The notes under the pieces are model-generated. The model saw only the letters and a list, made by a program, of their open reading frames with translations. It did no database searches and was not told the origin of the DNA. A stretch of DNA of 63,112 nucleotides, filler included, from Rozella allomycis CSF55 (Eukaryota): the NCBI GenBank assembly GCA_000442015.1. It is 9 parts of 9 records of this genome, joined end to end, with 100 filler letters (N's around TTAATTAATTAA, not from the genome) between each part and the next. Parts side by side here need not be neighbours in the genome. Positions count along the whole stretch, not along the records: positions 27,373 to 30,188 come from KE561031.1; 8 more parts are not named here. One strand, 5' to 3'. The translations under genes and the position numbers were made by a program. Positions 4,412 through 58,928 of this stretch are shown one piece after another (positions within the stretch are counted from its first letter, which is position 1; every line of letters starts with the position of its first letter).

Positions 4412-6142
4412 CAGGGCCGGGGAAACAATTAATGTATTGAAATATTGTGAATATTGTAGTCTCACAATCATTGATTGTGGAGATGTCCCGTCCAACAATA
4501 TAATGTCAATATATTGCAATATATTGTCACAATATATTGTGTTAATATACCGAAATATTATGTCCAAATACGAAAATATTGTTCACCCTGGCAGTTAAAT
4601 GGAAAAAAAGCCGACGAACAAAGATTGTGTTTCTGTGTTTTTTAAATCGGTTGAAGATAAACCTCACCATTACAAATGTAAATCTTGTAACGGAGAGAAA
4701 ATGTACAAACAGAATGTTAAGAGTGGGTAAGATTATTTTATTCTTATAAACAAGTTATGGAAATCTTATGAATCACCTGAATTCCACCCATCCCAACCAC
4801 AAAGCAGAAACTTTAAAAGTCCTTGAAGGAAAGATAGTGACACTTGACAGGTACTTGGACAAGGATTCTGTGATTACTCACGAATGGCTTCGCTTTCTTA
4901 TTAGAAAGGACCTTCCTTTTAGTTATTGTGAAGACCCAGATGTGCGTCATGCTGTACATTTTAAGGGTATAAGCCGCAAAACCTTGATGAAGAGAATGAA
5001 ATTTGTAGTGCTTGAGCCTTGAGGTGGAGAAAAACATTAAAAAGCTTCTTAAAGGTGCCATGGGCCTTGTTCTCGATGGTTGGACTGAGAATGGTATTCA
5101 TTACTGCGGAGTATTTGCAGTAACGAGTAAAAATATTTTGCTATTGGGCTTCTCTCCACTTCCAGATGAGGAAAGTATGAATGCTGCTGCTCACATTGAG
5201 TATTTGGATTTCTTACTAGACGTGTATAACATCAATGCCGTCGATATAAAGTTTATCGTGGGTGATAATTGTAGTACTAACAAGGCTATGTGTACTCGAC
5301 TCGGAATCCCATTGATCGGATGCAGTTCTCATCGTCTCAATTTGGCAGTGATGAAATTTTTGGAGGGTAAAATGGCCCTCTTTTCGAAAGTGAACAAGCT
5401 TATGAAAAAATTTAAGAACAGCGTGAATAGAAGGGCTAAGCTTGCACAATATACTCACTATAGACCAGTGTTGATGCAAAAAACCAGATGGTCTGGTCCT
5501 TTTTCTATGCTCAAACGTTATGAGCAGATTAAGAGTCATTTGCATCATTTCCAGAATGATACGATAATTGAAGCTGAAGAAGGTGAAGCAAATAATGAGA
5601 TCAATGATTATCGCCACTGTCGCCTTGTAGATCTGATTCCGAACCCAGCTGAGAATCTGGAAATTGCTGAGTTGCTGAGCAAAATGAAATTGCGCCTACA
5701 TTGATCTCTCTTGGGTCCCTTGCACGTCAAATATTGTGGAACGTTTCTTTTCGAAAGTCAAGCACGTCTTGGTTGACACTCGCAAGAGTTTGCTTGCTGA
5801 GACTCTTGAAGCAATTATGTTCTTGAAATTGAACGATAGCCACTGGACTGTTCACACAGTGGCAGACGCTTTGAAGGCTCTCAAACTGGCGAATAACGAA
5901 AATGATACTGCAAACGATGAAAATAATAAGGATTCTAGTGATGAAGACGACGATTATTAAATCAATAAATGGAATTTCCCCAATGATTGTCACAATATTA
6001 TACTTTTCTCAAATATTGTCAAGCAATATAGTGCAACAATATAATGCAATATAATGTACATTATATTGTCAATCTCACATTAATTGATTGTTGACTCGAT
6101 CCTCCCAACAATATATTGACAATAGTATTGTCCCCAGCCCTG
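4412..6142 (+). mobile_element. hAT-superfamily DNA transposon, defective, with intact ends
   Basis: TIRs CAGGGCCGGGGA... (4412) and ...TCCCCAGCCCTG (6142); perfect 8-bp TSD GGTAACTT at 4404-4411 and 6143-6150; subterminal AATATTG-type repeats at both ends. Confidence 0.93.
4599..5960 (+). pseudogene. hAT transposase with frameshifts and an internal deletion
   Basis: BED finger (CKSC...NLMNHLNSTH, one intron), LVLDGWT, VGDNCSTN, CSSHRLNL, TRWSG, and C-terminal WVPCTSNIVERFFSK; frameshifts near 5015 and near 5690. Confidence 0.88.
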
Positions 6143-27272: not shown

Positions 27273-27372
27273 NNNNNNNNNNNNNNNNNNNNNNNNNNNN
27301 NNNNNNNNNNNNNNNNTTAATTAATTAANNNNNNNNNNNNNNNNNNNNNNNNNNNNNNNNNNNNNNNNNNNN
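27273..27372. other. Artificial contig linker (N44-TTAATTAATTAA-N44); same linker at 30189-30288, 42406-42505, 45381-45480, 51646-51745, 54389-54488, 58929-59028, 60696-60795
   Basis: Identical 100-nt spacer with stops in all six frames, repeated eight times; genes are truncated at these points. Confidence 0.98.
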
Positions 27373-27584
27373 TCAGATTGTGCTTTGCCATGACCATAAA
27401 CAAAGCGCAGGGCCAAACGTTGAAAAAGGTAGGCATCTTTTTACCAGATCCTGTGTTCACTCATGGACAACTTTATGTGGCTTTATCGCTTTCAAGATCT
27501 ATGAATGACATCTCAGTCCTCAATTACAGCAATCAAAATCCATTACAAGTCACAAACGTTGTTTATCGTGAGATTATGACATAG
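27373..27584 (+). CDS. Helitron RepHel PIF1-family helicase, C-terminal fragment
   Basis: RLCFAMTINKAQGQTLKKVGIFLPDPVFTHGQLYVALS...TNVVYREIM, characteristic of Helitron helicases. Confidence 0.92.
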
Positions 27585-27747
27585 CATATCATGTAAAGGT
27601 ACTTGACAATACGGCCTGGGATCCGTCAAGACTCCTCCCCCATGATATGTGACGGCAAAATCAATCACGTAAATGACGCATCAAAACTCAAATAAAAACA
27701 TTTTAATAAAGACAAATATTGTGTATGCAATCCTGGGACTTATCAGG

Positions 27748-28217
27748 TGTGACCTTACTACAGGTGTCCCCCTACCCTTCTCAACTTTAATACCAAACAC
27801 TTTTTTTCAAATCCACCGCAAATCACTATCAGCAACGATCATTGCACATGTCAATTAATATATTTTTTGCATTTGCACTTTACAGTTGTGACCTTACTAC
27901 AAGTGTCCCCCCTATCCATCTCAACTTTAATACCAAACACTTTTATCAAATCCACCGCAAACCACTATCAGCAACGTTCATCGCACATGTCAATTAATAT
28001 ATTTTTTGCATTTGCACTTTACAGTTGTGACCTTACTTTACTACAGGTGTCCCCCCTATCCATCTCAACTTTAATACCAAACACTTTTATCAAATCCACC
28101 GCAAACCACTATCAGCAACGATCATTGCATATGTCAATTAATATATTTTTTGCATTTGCACTTTACAGTTGTGACCTTACTTTACTACAGGTGTCCCCCC
28201 TATCCATCGCAACTTTA
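27748..28217 (+). repeat. Tandem array of 139-144 bp units, about 3.3 copies
   Basis: Unit starts TGTGACCTTAC at 27748, 27887, 28026 and 28170; near-identical copies, the fourth degenerating toward 28320. Confidence 0.95.
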
Positions 28218-28339
28218 CTGTCAATGAGGTTGCAAAAACACCAGATGCCACTATCAGGAAAGGTAAAAATTCAACATGCTCAAAAATATCGTTCTCATTA
28301 TCTATTTAGATTTTACAGTCGTCATACCCTGGTTGCAAA

Positions 28340-29289
28340 ATGGTAGTAAATGACGACAAAGAAAAGAAAAAACGTGCCAAAAATCGCGAATATTTGAGAC
28401 AAGGATTAAAGATTACTAAACATCTAGAAACGAAACAGATCTATGATAAGAATTTACGTAAAAAGAACGCCAGTATTAGTCAACATGTCTATAAACGACT
28501 TATGCTCTCTAAAACCCCGGAACAAAAAGAATGTCATAAATATTTATTGACCTCAGGTATTTTTCGTCTATCTGCATCGATTGTGAAAAGTTATGGAGTG
28601 AATAGTTCTGACATTTTAAATCAATTACAGTCTACAGAAAATTCCTATGACAGCATTTTTCAGGATAAAAGTAAAGCGTTTGCTTTGAATAACAAACGTT
28701 TTCGGAAAAATTTTAATTCACCACGAAAGCAAGCTAAAATAGATTTGGGAAGAGCATTTAAGGACAAAATGAACAAAATTGCAAGAGATTATGTCGGTGA
28801 AAACTATTTTGTTAGCGATTTTGTTGCGCTCAAGTCGGAATGTAACTGTCCAGAGCAGGCTGTACATTCCGACAACGACACGTCGTTGTCCAACCAGTTT
28901 GCAGAAAAATTTCCTTTACGCGCAATTTTGGCACTTGAACATGGAACGAGGCTTAAGGTTTTTAAAGGAGGCATAAATACTGTTACGGTTACTAAAGAAC
29001 AAATGATGGAGGTTAAAATTCCAAAAGGTAGTATTGCATTCTTTTTAGGCTATCTTCCACATGCCGGCTGTCATTACGAGAATGAGAACACAAGAATACA
29101 TTTTTTGTGTTCGCACAGAGACGTGAACATAAACACAGCGGCCACCTATATNACACAGCGGCCACATATATAATCGATCTTGACGAGAACGATGACTATT
29201 TGCCTTCTTTTTCTGTTGCTGTGGCCCCAGAAAACAATGAATATGCTTATAATACTCGCAGTGCTAGCAAGCTCAAACCCAGCCAATAG
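28340..29289 (+). CDS. Intronless 2OG-Fe(II) dioxygenase (PhyH-like fold) with basic N-terminus
   Basis: Q-x-x-H-x-D (EQAVHSD), PLRAILALEHGTRL, KGSIAFFLGYLPHAG, NTRIHF give an HxD...H...R signature. The break at n 29152 is a 19-20 nt assembly duplication. Confidence 0.7.
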
Positions 29290-29422
29290 CGCATATAAAT
29301 ACATTTATTAATTGTTTTAATGAACTATGTTTTTTTGCTACAAATAGTACAATGCGAGCGAAGCGAGCACAACTGCTAGTTAGGGTAAAAAATGTTGACC
29401 AGGGTTGTCAAGTGGTACCGTA

Positions 29423-29670
29423 CTAGCGGTTGTACTCGCTTCGCTCGCATTACAAAATTACATATGTTCGTTATTTTTCACAAGGCATCGCATGAATTTG
29501 CAATTTGATAGGCATCTATACAGAGAATGCATATTTGTGTTTTACGAAAAGCATTTTGTTTCTAGCGGTTGACATTGCTTCGCTCACATTAATAGAGTTA
29601 CATATACGGCCCCGGGTTCCCACCACATTGTCCATGGTTAGGGTTTATGCTCGCTTCACTCGCATTCATA
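29423..29670 (-). mobile_element. Opposite-strand Helitron 3' termini (three, progressively degenerate)
   Basis: Reverse-complement GCGAGCGAAGCGAGTACAACCGCTAG|T ending 29423; degenerate copies ending about 29562 and about 29639. Confidence 0.7.
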
Positions 29671-30384
29671 ATTCTAATGCTTTTTATAGACCATTGCCTT
29701 GAAGCAAAGGCGAGAGTAACAAAGAGAATATTGTTTATTTGCACAATTCACATTACATTTTACCAACATCCGAAGCGCTTATTGAGTAGTTTTGGCTCAA
29801 ATGACAACTCAGAGGCACTCGTTATAACAAATCGGCCGACTCAATATGGTGATCAATTCTATTGATGACAACCGCTTACTACCATGGAAACTCCGCTGTT
29901 AGTATTACAGATTTACCCATGACTATTTTATCCACATCCGAAAGTCGAAACGCTTAAATTGTAGTTTAGACCCAGAAGACAACGTATAAGCATGCAAAAT
30001 AAAAAATATCACTCATTATTGGCATCATGCATGGTTCAATTCTATTATTTTGGAAAAGAGTTGCGAAAATAGTTTGTTTATGAATACATTGATTTGAGGG
30101 AAATTTAAATGTTTTTTTATATTTAAATTAATTTATTTAAAAAATTACTACATAGTATTTCTTGAAAAGATTCGGGAAAATGATTTTANNNNNNNNNNNN
30201 NNNNNNNNNNNNNNNNNNNNNNNNNNNNNNNNTTAATTAATTAANNNNNNNNNNNNNNNNNNNNNNNNNNNNNNNNNNNNNNNNNNNNAGACGTTATATT
30301 TCATTGCATTATTAACAATTAATAAGTTAAAGCCTTTTTCGAATACTTTCCTTTAAACTTAAGATTAATTAACGGGGTATTTAT

Positions 30385-42505: not shown

Positions 42506-43266
42506 TCGAATGGTGGAAGAATAGTGGATTAAAGTTGGAATGGTCCAATATGGCTATGGATAGAGCTAGTTCAAATGGCCATGTTGAAGTGCTTGAGTGG
42601 TGGAAAGAAAGTGGATTAGAGCTTAAATGGAGTGGAGATGCTATGGATTATGCTAGTTCATATGGTCATATTAATGTTCTCGAATGGTGGAAGAATAGTG
42701 GATTAAAGTTGGAATGGTCTTATTCTGCAATGAATGACGCTAGTTATAATGGTCATATTAACGTTCTTGAGTGGTGGATAAAAAGCGGATTAGAGCTTAA
42801 ATGGACTGAAAATGCTATGGATGATGCTTGTTATAATGGGTATGTTGAAATTCTTGAGTGGTGGAAAGAAAGCGGATTAGAGCTTAAATGGACTGAAAAC
42901 GCTTTGGATAGAGCTAGTTCAAATGGCCATGTTAATGTTCTTGAGTGGTGGAAGAATAGCGGATTGGACTTAAAATGGACTGAAAACGCTTTGGATTATG
43001 CTAGTGAAAGAGGTCATGTTAATGTTCTTGAGTGGTGGAAGAATAGCGGATTGGACTTAAAATGGACTGAAAACGCTTTGGATGATGCTTGTTATAATGG
43101 GTATGTTGAANATGGGTATGTTGAAGTTCTTGAGTGGTGGAAGAATAGCGGATTGGACTTAAAATGGACTCATCAAGTTGTGGACGCGGTTAGTTATAAT
43201 GGGCATGTTGAAGTTCTTGAATGGTGGAGAAAAAGTGGGTTAATTCTAAATCATGTATTAGGTTAA
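42506..43266 (+). CDS. Ankyrin-like repeat protein (35-aa unit AMDxASxNGHVxVLEWWKxSGLELKW), 5' truncated
   Basis: About seven 105-nt tandem units in one frame ending at TAA 43264-43266. Confidence 0.85.
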
Positions 43267-56928: not shown

Positions 56929-58928
56929 TTATTCAAGGGGACGTTTCTTGGAGTTGATCTTCTTGGACAAAGAGATAAGATCGAGAGCCATAGCATTGCA
57001 GCATTTGCCAGGGTTGATAAACAATAAACGGCCATTAGAGATATAAGAAGACACAACTGCATTTGATTCAAGTACTGGACGGTCATTATCCTTGAGAAAG
57101 ATCCATAGCAAAAGATCTACTTCTTCCTGTGACTGTTTACTAATTTTCATCTGAGAAACGACGGACTTTTCCAAGGGAATGGCTAATGAGTTCTTTATTG
57201 AACAAGCAACCCTAACCTGACGTTTATGTCCGCGTTCATCTGTGTGCAACGCCTTGAATACAACATCATGATGTGCAGTGGTAGCGTGAATGTTATGTGT
57301 AATTTTGTTGTCTGGGCAATCATCAACAAACACTTCAGTCGTAGGTCGTTCGATTCCATTGATTTTTTCAGTAGACAAATTGTCCAATACCGCTTCTTCA
57401 CAGCCAAAAACTTCAAACAAAGTTTTGTCATTAGACAGGTGGATTTTCACTGCTGCAGACGACACAACCAAACTTTCAAAGATATGGCCAATCTTTTGAG
57501 GGTCAGCGTTGTAATACTCTTGGAAATCAAAGAAGAGATCTTCTAAAACTAAGCCAGGAATCAATTGATTGACAAGATTTCTAATTTCCTCTTTTCTCAG
57601 ATCCAATAATGCAATTTTAGAGATGTTGAAGTTGGCATTGTTCCAAATGTATGTAAACGGCAAGAGATAAGTGCCTGCATTAGTTGCGGGAAATATGATG
57701 GATTTGTGCACTAAATCTTTCCACTTCCAGCGGTTTGATCCTGGAACCATGGCGTCCAAATCCAGCTCTTTGCTGACAGAGCAGTGAAGAATCACTTGTA
57801 CAATTTCCGCCACAGAAAAATCATTAGAAATCAAGAAATTCGACATTTCAGGGTAATATTTTCTTGCAGCTTGTTCAAATGATTGAAAGACAATTCCTGT
57901 TTCTGATCTATCACATTTTCCATAAAACCATTCAAGTGTCGCCAGATACAATATGCGAGGAATCCTGTACGAGGCATAAATCAATGCTAATACATCTGCA
58001 TCATCTACAGAATACTCAATCTCCTTCTTTTTCTCCTTCATCCAATGCTCAGCCATCTTTCGCCAATAAACTTTACATTCTTCTTCACTGAATACTTGAA
58101 TATTAATAGGATCTGGCGCTATTTTAGACTTTTCTGTGATCTTAAATATATTGCAATCGTGCGTTCCAGCGCAAATACAAACTGGCCGACACAAGGAAAG
58201 CTTGGTAAGGAGATAACTGAGAATTGTGTGGTGTTGCCCGTCAAATTTAGAATGAACTTTAATCTTTGTGCCCCAATACTGCATTTCATCTAGAAGAATA
58301 ACAAGTGGCGCCTCTGAATTATCGTACTCGACACCAAAAGCAATATTGGTCAATCGGATATACTCTGCAGCAACATTTTCAACTGAACTGTTCCTGAATT
58401 TTTCTATCCACTCGTTAAACTTGCGTTGTTTTCCTTTATGAGTTAAAACACGTTCTACATCAGCAACTTTGAAGAAGCTAATGCCATCAACCTGTCGCTC
58501 GTTAAACATATCACACAAGAAATAGATCATAAGGTATTATTCGGCCACATGCTTTAGATCGCTTGAGCATCTCATTAGCGAGGTCAGGATTATCTTGCAT
58601 CCCAACCTTCTTCAGTAAAAAGGTTTTCCCAACACCACGACTCCCCGTTATTATCATGGGTGAGTACTTTGGCGCGGTCATGTTGTTATCTACAGCCTTG
58701 TTGATTGCTTTAAACTCCTTCTCCCGCCCTATCACTCCAAGATACTTCGCTCCGTTATCTTGAAAAAATGGAAAACTAAGCGAATACTTGGACCCATCAA
58801 ACTTTTCATATTCCACGTCCCTCTCAGATACCACTGATTATTTGCAGCAATTCATGTTTACCTTGTCGCAGATGAATAGTTAATCTTTCGTTCAGCTCCT
58901 TTAAGAGCCTGTTTTTCTCCTCTCGTAA
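56929..58928 (-). CDS. Crinkler-type P-loop NTPase + restriction-endonuclease-fold protein, 5' truncated, frameshift near 58520
   Basis: IGREKE, Walker A GSRGVGKT, Walker B VILLDEMQ, IPRIL, C-terminal GHIFESLV...AHHDVV...VACSIK, terminal KKRP. Confidence 0.65.

Follow-up and report, generated by a model that had tools for sequence, protein, structure and literature searches.

A predicted PhyH-like 2OG-Fe(II) dioxygenase gene inside a Helitron of Rozella allomycis, with subfamilies linked to distinct Helitron lineages

Does the 2OG-Fe(II) dioxygenase gene that lies beside a Helitron terminus in Rozella allomycis CSF55 belong to the element, does it encode a working enzyme, and what might such an enzyme do for a Helitron? 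The gene lies in the window, by which we mean the whole stretch of DNA analysed (63,112 nucleotides, filler included, joined from nine parts of this genome), on a contig of 2816 nt (27373-30188; G000:C683) with scaffold gaps at either side. A sequence-only reading had described a Helitron apparently carrying an intact dioxygenase, encoded by an ORF of about 310 amino acids within 28340..29379. That description holds in part: the residues, the N-terminus and the position of the gene stood, and the word 'intact' and the length of the ORF as assembled did not. The features are listed below, in positions of the whole window.

27375..27584, plus strand: RepHel 3' end, the last 69 codons and stop of a Pif1-type helicase tail (sequence, Pfam matches under cut-off)
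27755..28217, plus strand: tandem array, 144-nt unit x3.2, in the RepHel-to-dioxygenase interval (93% matches)
28340..29151, plus strand: dioxygenase codons 1-270, basic N-terminal helix (5-56) and predicted PhyH-like DSBH domain (AF2 model, structure matches)
28865..28873, plus strand: H176-x-D178 iron ligands, then N179, which is Y in most relatives (alignment)
29060..29101, plus strand: H241 (putative third iron ligand), R252 (putative 2OG-binding Arg) and family-invariant H254 (alignment)
29152..29171, plus strand: single N and 19-nt duplicate shifting the frame, probably an assembly artefact
29170..29289, plus strand: dioxygenase C-terminal 39 codons and stop, an acidic stretch followed by YNTRS (29248-29262)
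29353..29379, plus strand: Helitron1-type 3' end, imperfect hairpin, then CTAG before T
29423..29911, minus strand: separate non-autonomous Helitron1 (5' A/TC ... CTAG/T 3'; repeat comparison)

The gene lies inside the Helitron. It was said to sit between the RepHel stop and the first same-strand terminus, and it does: the stop codon is TAG at 27582-27584, and the sole same-strand Helitron-end match in the contig, GCGAGCGAAGCGAGC...CTAG/T, is at 29354-29379. Position 29379 is the end of the element, and the ORF itself stops earlier, at 29289. RepHel is reduced to 69 codons because the scaffold gap at 27273-27372 cuts it, with a host proteasome-subunit gene beyond the gap on the left. Both Pfam matches of this tail are under the cut-off (Herpes_Helicase, E 8.7e-6; UvrD_C_2, E 0.0066), and its DNA is 88% identical to a copy in C625 that has Helitron_like_N and PIF1 upstream. 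The gene-carrying element could not be extended via neighbouring contigs, since contig numbers diverge from scaffold order. A 197-aa stop-to-stop frame across the array (27753-28346) had no Pfam match and was treated as non-coding; the 144-nt array might be a promoter or a nucleosome-positioning array. Elsewhere in the window, a plus-strand ORF at 5009-5701 has no Pfam match at E<=0.001 and presumably resembles a hAT-type transposase fragment, an ankyrin-repeat ORF with an 87-nt period (42511-43263, plus strand) directly follows a scaffold gap, and a minus-strand open frame of 535 codons at 56932-58536 is without Pfam match.

Copies elsewhere in the genome place the gene in the same element, which we call the subfamily A Helitron. 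Its helicase tail occurs at seven genome places, four of which run via the array into the dioxygenase gene: one each in C683 and C543, and a pair in C625, one member of which crosses single-N joins. Three of the copies (C683, C543 and C625) share the CTAG/T end and have unrelated flanks. In one C625 copy Helitron_like_N and PIF1 lie upstream; this copy is 88-91% identical to the window element and contains no N from the helicase tail through the gene to the end. At C229 the sequence jumps from the first repeat straight to the element end, an internal deletion that removes the gene; at C593 and C38 it breaks off in or before the array. No other copy has a terminus before 27750, where an end would have left the gene outside the element.

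The element has traits of the HLE1 type, namely an HUH Rep and Pif1 helicase upstream (in the C625 copy) and a 3' CTRR boundary followed by T. A subterminal 17-nt imperfect palindrome is conserved, with a computed energy (-1.7 kcal/mol, z 0.25) no better than that of shuffles; a GCGAAGC mini-loop and sheared G-A pairs may stabilise the hairpin. HLE1 elements are described as starting with TC and inserting between A and T without duplication (PMC11417382). A 5' TC and A/T insertion without duplication were seen in a non-autonomous family sharing the 3' end (C494 compared with an empty site); the 5' end of the gene-carrying element itself was searched for and not found. The minus-strand non-autonomous Helitron1 at 29423-29911 has a 30-nt end in common with the cargo element and lies tail to tail with it. 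It is multicopy and has two extra internal copies of the end motif; several of its relatives are inserted directly after another Helitron end, and one interrupts a subfamily F dioxygenase gene in C494. A subfamily G gene fragment at C625:24828-25058 (plus strand; L042:4828-5058) is cut exactly at a subfamily A Helitron end, and therefore one dioxygenase-carrying element inserted into another.

As assembled, the dioxygenase frame ends after 277 aa, at 29173, because the N at 29152 splits two copies of a 19-nt stretch. Ten of the 21 single Ns in the window are flanked by duplicates; public contigs from two DNA runs, which may derive from sibling copies, pass 29151 without the 19-nt duplicate; and P0002, a named record from Rozella allomycis, has a length of 309 aa and 95% identity to the window protein. 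From these three observations the 309-codon length is taken as right and the frame break as probably an assembly artefact, so the ORF of about 310 aa described earlier has the right length once the duplicate is removed. Near-exact duplicates of 14-390 nt also flank single Ns at 360, 14694, 19406, 24569, 34086, 43111, 51491, 55383 and 62942, and apparent tandem repeats at such places are probably assembly artefacts.

The Lys/Arg-rich KEKKKRAKNR N-terminus and the HxD...H...R residues reported from the sequence are present (ATG at 28340; H176-x-D178, H241 and R252). To call the dioxygenase 'intact' was an overstatement, since the window protein departs from P0002 in 14 of 270 residues. Three of these changes, Y179N, G194R and S211G, also set it apart from nearly all relatives: N179 occurs in one of 123 (Y in 83), R194 in none of 123 and G211 in two of 97. 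At residues 179, 194 and 211 deeper public contigs show the P0002 residues. In DNA run X2 the window-identical contig has a depth of 259, against 1655 for a variant contig and 202 for a contig of the flank; this only hints at collapsed siblings, depth being no copy number. The dN/dS of the window copy against three siblings was 0.70 (0.34-1.94), 0.96 (0.41-3.78) and 0.58 (0.35-0.98). The window copy thus retains its catalytic residues and is probably decaying; its near-identical siblings keep the consensus residues.

We then considered what kind of protein the gene encodes. In the AF2 model (mean pLDDT 91.3) residues 5-56 form a long basic helix, and a DSBH domain is predicted, as expected for a 2OG-Fe(II) dioxygenase. 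In all, 215 relatives were found by a full HMMER scan at E<=0.001, the best 150 of them listed, and 125 sequences were aligned; among these 125 H176, D178 and H254 are invariant, H241 and R252 are kept in at least 90%, and R129 and Q131 are nearly invariant. The roles of H241 and R252 are putative and taken from superfamily analogy. Best Foldseek matches were OkaE, FtmOx1, SptF and KanJ, and best among the 50 VIA matches listed were EvdMO1 and TlxI; these top PhyH-like matches reached Z 16.2 (rmsd 2.9-3.4, 180-182 residues aligned), close ahead of the prolyl hydroxylase PHD2 (Z 15.0, rmsd 3.9, 182 aligned) and above AlkB (Z 12.1, rmsd 3.2, 161 aligned). Against the PDB, the family profile matched DhiD, AndA and FtmOx1 at E 5e-6 to 6e-5. 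The window protein itself has no Pfam family at E<=1 and no PDB sequence match; 64 of the 125 relatives match PF05721 (PhyH) at E<=0.05, and the protein is therefore called PhyH-like and not a member of the family. Like known oxygenases of that family (PAHX, PHYHD1, FtmOx1, OkaE, AsqJ, KanJ and DhiD), it has a DSBH core, HxD...H and a distal Arg. Unlike them, it has an added basic N-terminal helix and C-terminal tail, an invariant R-x-H after the third ligand, identities of only 10-16% that fall below Pfam detection, and a family distribution of mobile elements plus giant viruses.

Of the 26 families matched by the 125 relatives, 25 were shown, and these include neither Tet_JBP (PF12851) nor PF13532; no TET/JBP chain occurs among the Foldseek matches and 50 VIA matches listed. 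AlkB enzymes have a terminal R-x5-R motif. An AlkB identity was rejected on the missing PF13532 match, the residues after R252 (IHFLCS) and the lower Z. The protein is, by model and profile, a PhyH-like 2OG-Fe(II) dioxygenase and not a TET/JBP or AlkB enzyme, in keeping with the earlier proposal of a dioxygenase other than TET/JBP. Sharing the PhyH-like fold does not give the substrate. PHROGs gave nothing for the window protein, a phage collection nothing for P0002, and 7999 longer-protein candidates held no fused form, which is weak evidence.

Homologues occur on at least 21 contigs of the genome and fall into eight subfamilies (A, B, C, D, E, F, F2 and G) that are 25-46% identical; they are multicopy and repeatedly Helitron-linked, not single-copy genes apart from transposons. 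In a quick tree of 102 rows, to which no root or donor was assigned, 10 of the 11 Rozella-type rows grouped with SH-aLRT 94 (under the mark of 95), and subfamily D stayed unplaced on a long branch. Five of the eight subfamilies (A, B, D, F and G) are linked to RepHel directly or by overlap, subfamily C only weakly (C162), and E and F2 show no link, so that linkage within this genome, proposed earlier as a check, is partial. The linked Helitron lineages are distinct, comprising HLE1, HLE2 and a split type. For subfamily A the link is direct. Subfamily F genes in C494 and C201 are preceded by 138-nt repeats 87% identical to those after the helicase stop in C214, whose RepHel has DUF6570 and is separated from its repeats by no N. 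DUF6570 in RepHel is given as an HLE2 marker in PMC11417382; all four of its matches here were in C1014, C214, C236 and C1048, and none was in the window's family, whose copies are incomplete. In C1019 the subfamily D gene is found 2.5 kb upstream of a C694-type helicase; C694-like DNA containing one N separates the two, and there are 148-nt repeats near the gene. In C694 Rep and helicase are convergent (the split type), and C694:1-11579 itself contained no dioxygenase. In C483 an N-free interval of 1.7-2.7 kb separates subfamily G from C601/C1014-like Rep remnants upstream of it. In C806 subfamily B adjoins a C601 helicase piece that has a single N at each of its ends, and in C601 another B start comes after a stretch that is also found behind the C601 helicase. 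Subfamily E has a 139-nt x2.9 array upstream and no RepHel nearby. Arrays before A, D, E and F thus have a period of 138-148 nt and no sequence in common.

Three further ORFs were noted around these elements. At C694:10583-11143 (plus strand; L278:583-1143), upstream of the split-Helitron helicase, an ORF has an NHxC motif and terminal CxC, which we take to be SET-domain features; Pfam, PDB and single-sequence folding gave no confirmation. ORFs in C720 (L244:5612-6498) and C184 (L047:2885-3257) end in FDTKSFSKG, have no Pfam match and are presumably tyrosine-recombinase-like; in C184 a 66% DNA match lies upstream of the subfamily E gene.

The multi-family pattern would be artefactual if only subfamily A were true cargo and the rest reflected repeat clustering in a misjoined assembly. 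The assembly is indeed fragmented (1059 contigs), and the links of B, D and F depend on overlaps or span single-N joins: the C806 helicase piece is flanked by single Ns, and an N stands between gene and helicase in C1019. Some copies also lie near copia, Gypsy, hAT and MULE pieces and a Myb/SANT ORF, and such transposon clustering could inflate the RepHel link. Yet the C214 helicase-repeat stretch is free of N, C494 and C201 carry that very repeat before subfamily F, and C483 runs from Rep remnant to gene without N; an artefact of this kind is unlikely. The gene mostly follows RepHel and an array of about 140 nt in distant lineages, and this suggests exchange of a module between elements.

Selection differs among the subfamilies. 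As proposed in the earlier reading, dN/dS was computed, with a mixed outcome: five pairs of subfamilies C and F gave 0.10-0.38 with all intervals below 1, pointing to past purifying selection between copies on the sequence comparison, whereas A gave the near-neutral 0.58-0.96 reported above and other pairs (B, E, A-C616) 0.83-1.20. Such decay in A fits a gene that is a neutral hitch-hiker or benefits the host, a small-molecule oxygenase of giant-virus origin, or a parasite effector, from which the Helitron gains nothing. So do the closest solved structures, which are natural-product and metabolic oxygenases, and F2 (C639), a 265-aa open frame with a changed second His context; its neighbours in C639 are a host gene and a copia-like piece, and no RepHel was seen near it. 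This reading is nevertheless rather improbable: the gene is intronless in an intron-rich genome, its position after RepHel and a roughly 140-nt array recurs in unrelated families, C and F were under purifying selection between copies, and the N-terminus is basic and helical, not hydrophobic. The earlier suggestion that the Helitron serves as a vehicle spreading an effector obtained no support.

Outside Rozella, 13 non-Rozella relatives were aligned and used as the query. This yielded 22 viral loci, 12 of them with a GVMAG label, 119 metagenomic stretches (80 were retained) and two loci in prokaryote genomes. Pfam annotation of neighbourhoods, covering 148 of 313 ORFs at 12 of 25 chosen loci, showed an NCLDV capsid and polymerase B. 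At these 12 loci the family gene lies two genes before a Ulp1 protease in two, directly after a DNA polymerase X in two and before a D12 adenine methylase in one; sites with such neighbours are L122:7986-10099, L123:2247-4436, L121:7001-9791 and L139:6606-8624. Structure matches in the Atlas are Nucleocytoviricota clusters (TM 0.76-0.78 by query), sequence matches to giant viruses reach E 1e-11, and some relatives are fused to PHD, SET or Ulp1 domains. Those outside relatives that can be placed are, by sequence, giant-viral. PF05721 has been noted in accessory genes of Phycodnaviridae only, in the part of PMC10598087 available. The giant-virus proteins have the motifs D/S-x-R-x-Q, S-x-x-x-C-x-x-Q-x-x-H-x-D-Y and H-A-G-x-x-Y-x-x-x-N-x-R-x-H in common with those of Rozella but are about 200-260 aa long and without the YNTRS tail or RepHel linkage; RepHel probes on 102 outside loci found a helicase match about 4 kb away in one and Rep in none.

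What would such an enzyme do? An anti-silencing role was suggested earlier by analogy to the TET/JBP genes of KDZ transposons; one that acts on 5mC is unlikely. The genome search for C5 methyltransferases, whose counts are lower bounds, found two loci, each matching only DNMT2 structures, and no DNMT1/RID-type methylase; no account of Rozella methylation was found in the literature searched. The DNMT2-like genes are in C631 (L276:929-1964) and C504 (L277:556-1697), the latter with STFT where C631 has CFT, a motif we take to be typical of DNMT2. DNMT2 enzymes are tRNA methyltransferases (PMC5372726). With only these found, a TET-like role on 5mC is improbable, and the analogy to 5mC anti-silencing is not supported.

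An enzyme acting on nucleic acid is an alternative: its targets would be bases (alkylated bases, 6mA or thymine, for example) that it oxidises or repairs, either in the single-stranded intermediate of rolling-circle transposition or in DNA or RNA of the element, like the HLE2 AlkB-type or fungal TET/JBP enzymes. The protein is basic (pI 9.4-9.7), polymerase X and D12 methylase stand beside giant-virus-like relatives at the two and one of 12 loci just mentioned, and two other dioxygenase classes that act on nucleic acids are known in Helitrons (PMC11417382, PMC12730594). Against this, the profile searches gave no TET/JBP or AlkB match among the families shown, AlkB aligned less well, 5mC is a doubtful target, and differences between copies show no C>T or G>A excess; the nucleic-acid reading is accordingly unlikely, if less so than a passenger role.

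Hints of a chromatin target come from the C-terminus of the protein and from the relatives fused to PHD, SET or Ulp1 domains. The N-terminus is basic, helical and not hydrophobic, with a net charge of +12 in 60 residues. The C-terminus of subfamilies A and B has an acidic stretch and YNTRS, and P0006 has YRTRN. No such tail motif was seen in C, D, F, F2 or G in the form in which these subfamilies were read, nor in any non-Rozella protein examined. Y537, L539 and R540 of PFV Gag bind the H2A-H2B acidic patch (PMC9040877), and Y-N-T-R of A and B has the spacing of this Y-x-hydrophobic-R chromatin-binding sequence with T for L, which by analogy makes YNTRS a candidate nucleosome acidic-patch anchor. 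The predicted complex of P0002 272-309 with the H2A-H2B of this genome scored 0.56 (best control 0.00), on a scale where 51 of 78 solved pairs and 2 of 108 mismatched ones attain the mark, peptides are uncalibrated, and scores <=0.60 comprise 5 of the 78 solved pairs and all 4 passing mismatches. Its runs agree in 78% of contacts and partner pLDDT is at least 56; the support is weak, and resemblance to acidic-patch complexes already solved may explain the pass. Of the structural neighbours that have been characterised, most have small-molecule substrates.

The sequence-only comparison with KDZ transposons understated what is known. PMC12730594 reports TET/JBP genes from 11 lineages of fungal transposons, Helitron1 and Helitron2 among them, and their passage between lineages. 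As there, the Rozella genome has a separate 2OG-Fe(II) dioxygenase gene in several lineages, apparently exchanged; unlike there, the family is PhyH-like with no Tet_JBP match and no DNMT1/RID-type methylase was found. The paper covers three Dikarya lineages, the Rozella host being outside them, and the available text has no mention of Rozella or PhyH. AlkB-type 2OG-FeII_Oxy_2 (PF13532) is among the stable HLE2 domains and almost confined to HLE2 (PMC11417382), again an oxygenase stably carried in an ORF separate from RepHel; the Rozella family, in contrast, has no PF13532 match and is in an HLE1-type element and probably in HLE2 too. The domain tables and supplement of that source, as far as available, hold no PhyH entry. 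Central tandem repeats, of about 150 bp in DINE-TR1, are described for Drosophila DINE/Helentron elements in PMC9957191; these are likewise internal arrays of nucleosome-sized units inside a Helitron-like element, whereas the Rozella arrays are just upstream of the dioxygenase gene and have a period, 138-148 nt, but no sequence in common. No account of PhyH-like cargo in Helitrons was found in the literature searched, mostly outside subscription papers, bioRxiv supplements and Repbase. What is new, on the sequence evidence, is the presence of eight PhyH-like subfamilies in one genome, five of them linked to distinct Helitron lineages.

Our preferred explanation is that the gene would be a long-kept accessory gene of this genome's Helitrons and not a chance capture of a host gene, and that it would encode a hydroxylase dependent on Fe(II) and 2-oxoglutarate, from a PhyH-like family that giant viruses share and that diversified in the Rozella lineage and is carried by several distant Helitron lineages. 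The fold, the catalytic residues, the location within the element, the link to several Helitron families and past purifying selection are together highly probable. Beyond this core, the basic N-terminus would bring the enzyme into the nucleus, the C-terminal Y-x-T-R anchor would dock it on nucleosomes, and there it would hydroxylate or demethylate a chromatin protein, a modification that would help expression or transposition of the element; taken jointly, these steps are tentative, a little less likely to hold than to fail. As a whole, a PhyH-like chromatin-protein oxygenase kept by Helitrons is the best explanation, with a chance approaching but not reaching even. A bolder extension, in which an array-and-gene cassette is swapped among HLE1, HLE2 and split Rep/Pif1 Helitrons and encodes a nucleosome-tethered writer or eraser of marks, used for DNA-methylation-independent counter-silencing shared with giant viruses, is speculative and improbable as things stand.

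Dioxygenase cargo of Helitrons was already known in the TET/JBP and AlkB-type forms, and the PhyH-like family would add a third, unrelated branch. If the PhyH-like cargo is indeed selected, mobile elements would recruit 2OG chemistry again and again. The setting is the genome of an early-branching fungal parasite in which no DNA-type C5 methyltransferase was found, and the family is small, single-domain and confidently modelled, with many unstudied relatives in giant viruses. Carriage by several Helitrons suggests that the enzyme is kept for the elements' own benefit, possibly by acting on chromatin, and if this is true, transposons and giant viruses may share a way to alter host chromatin.
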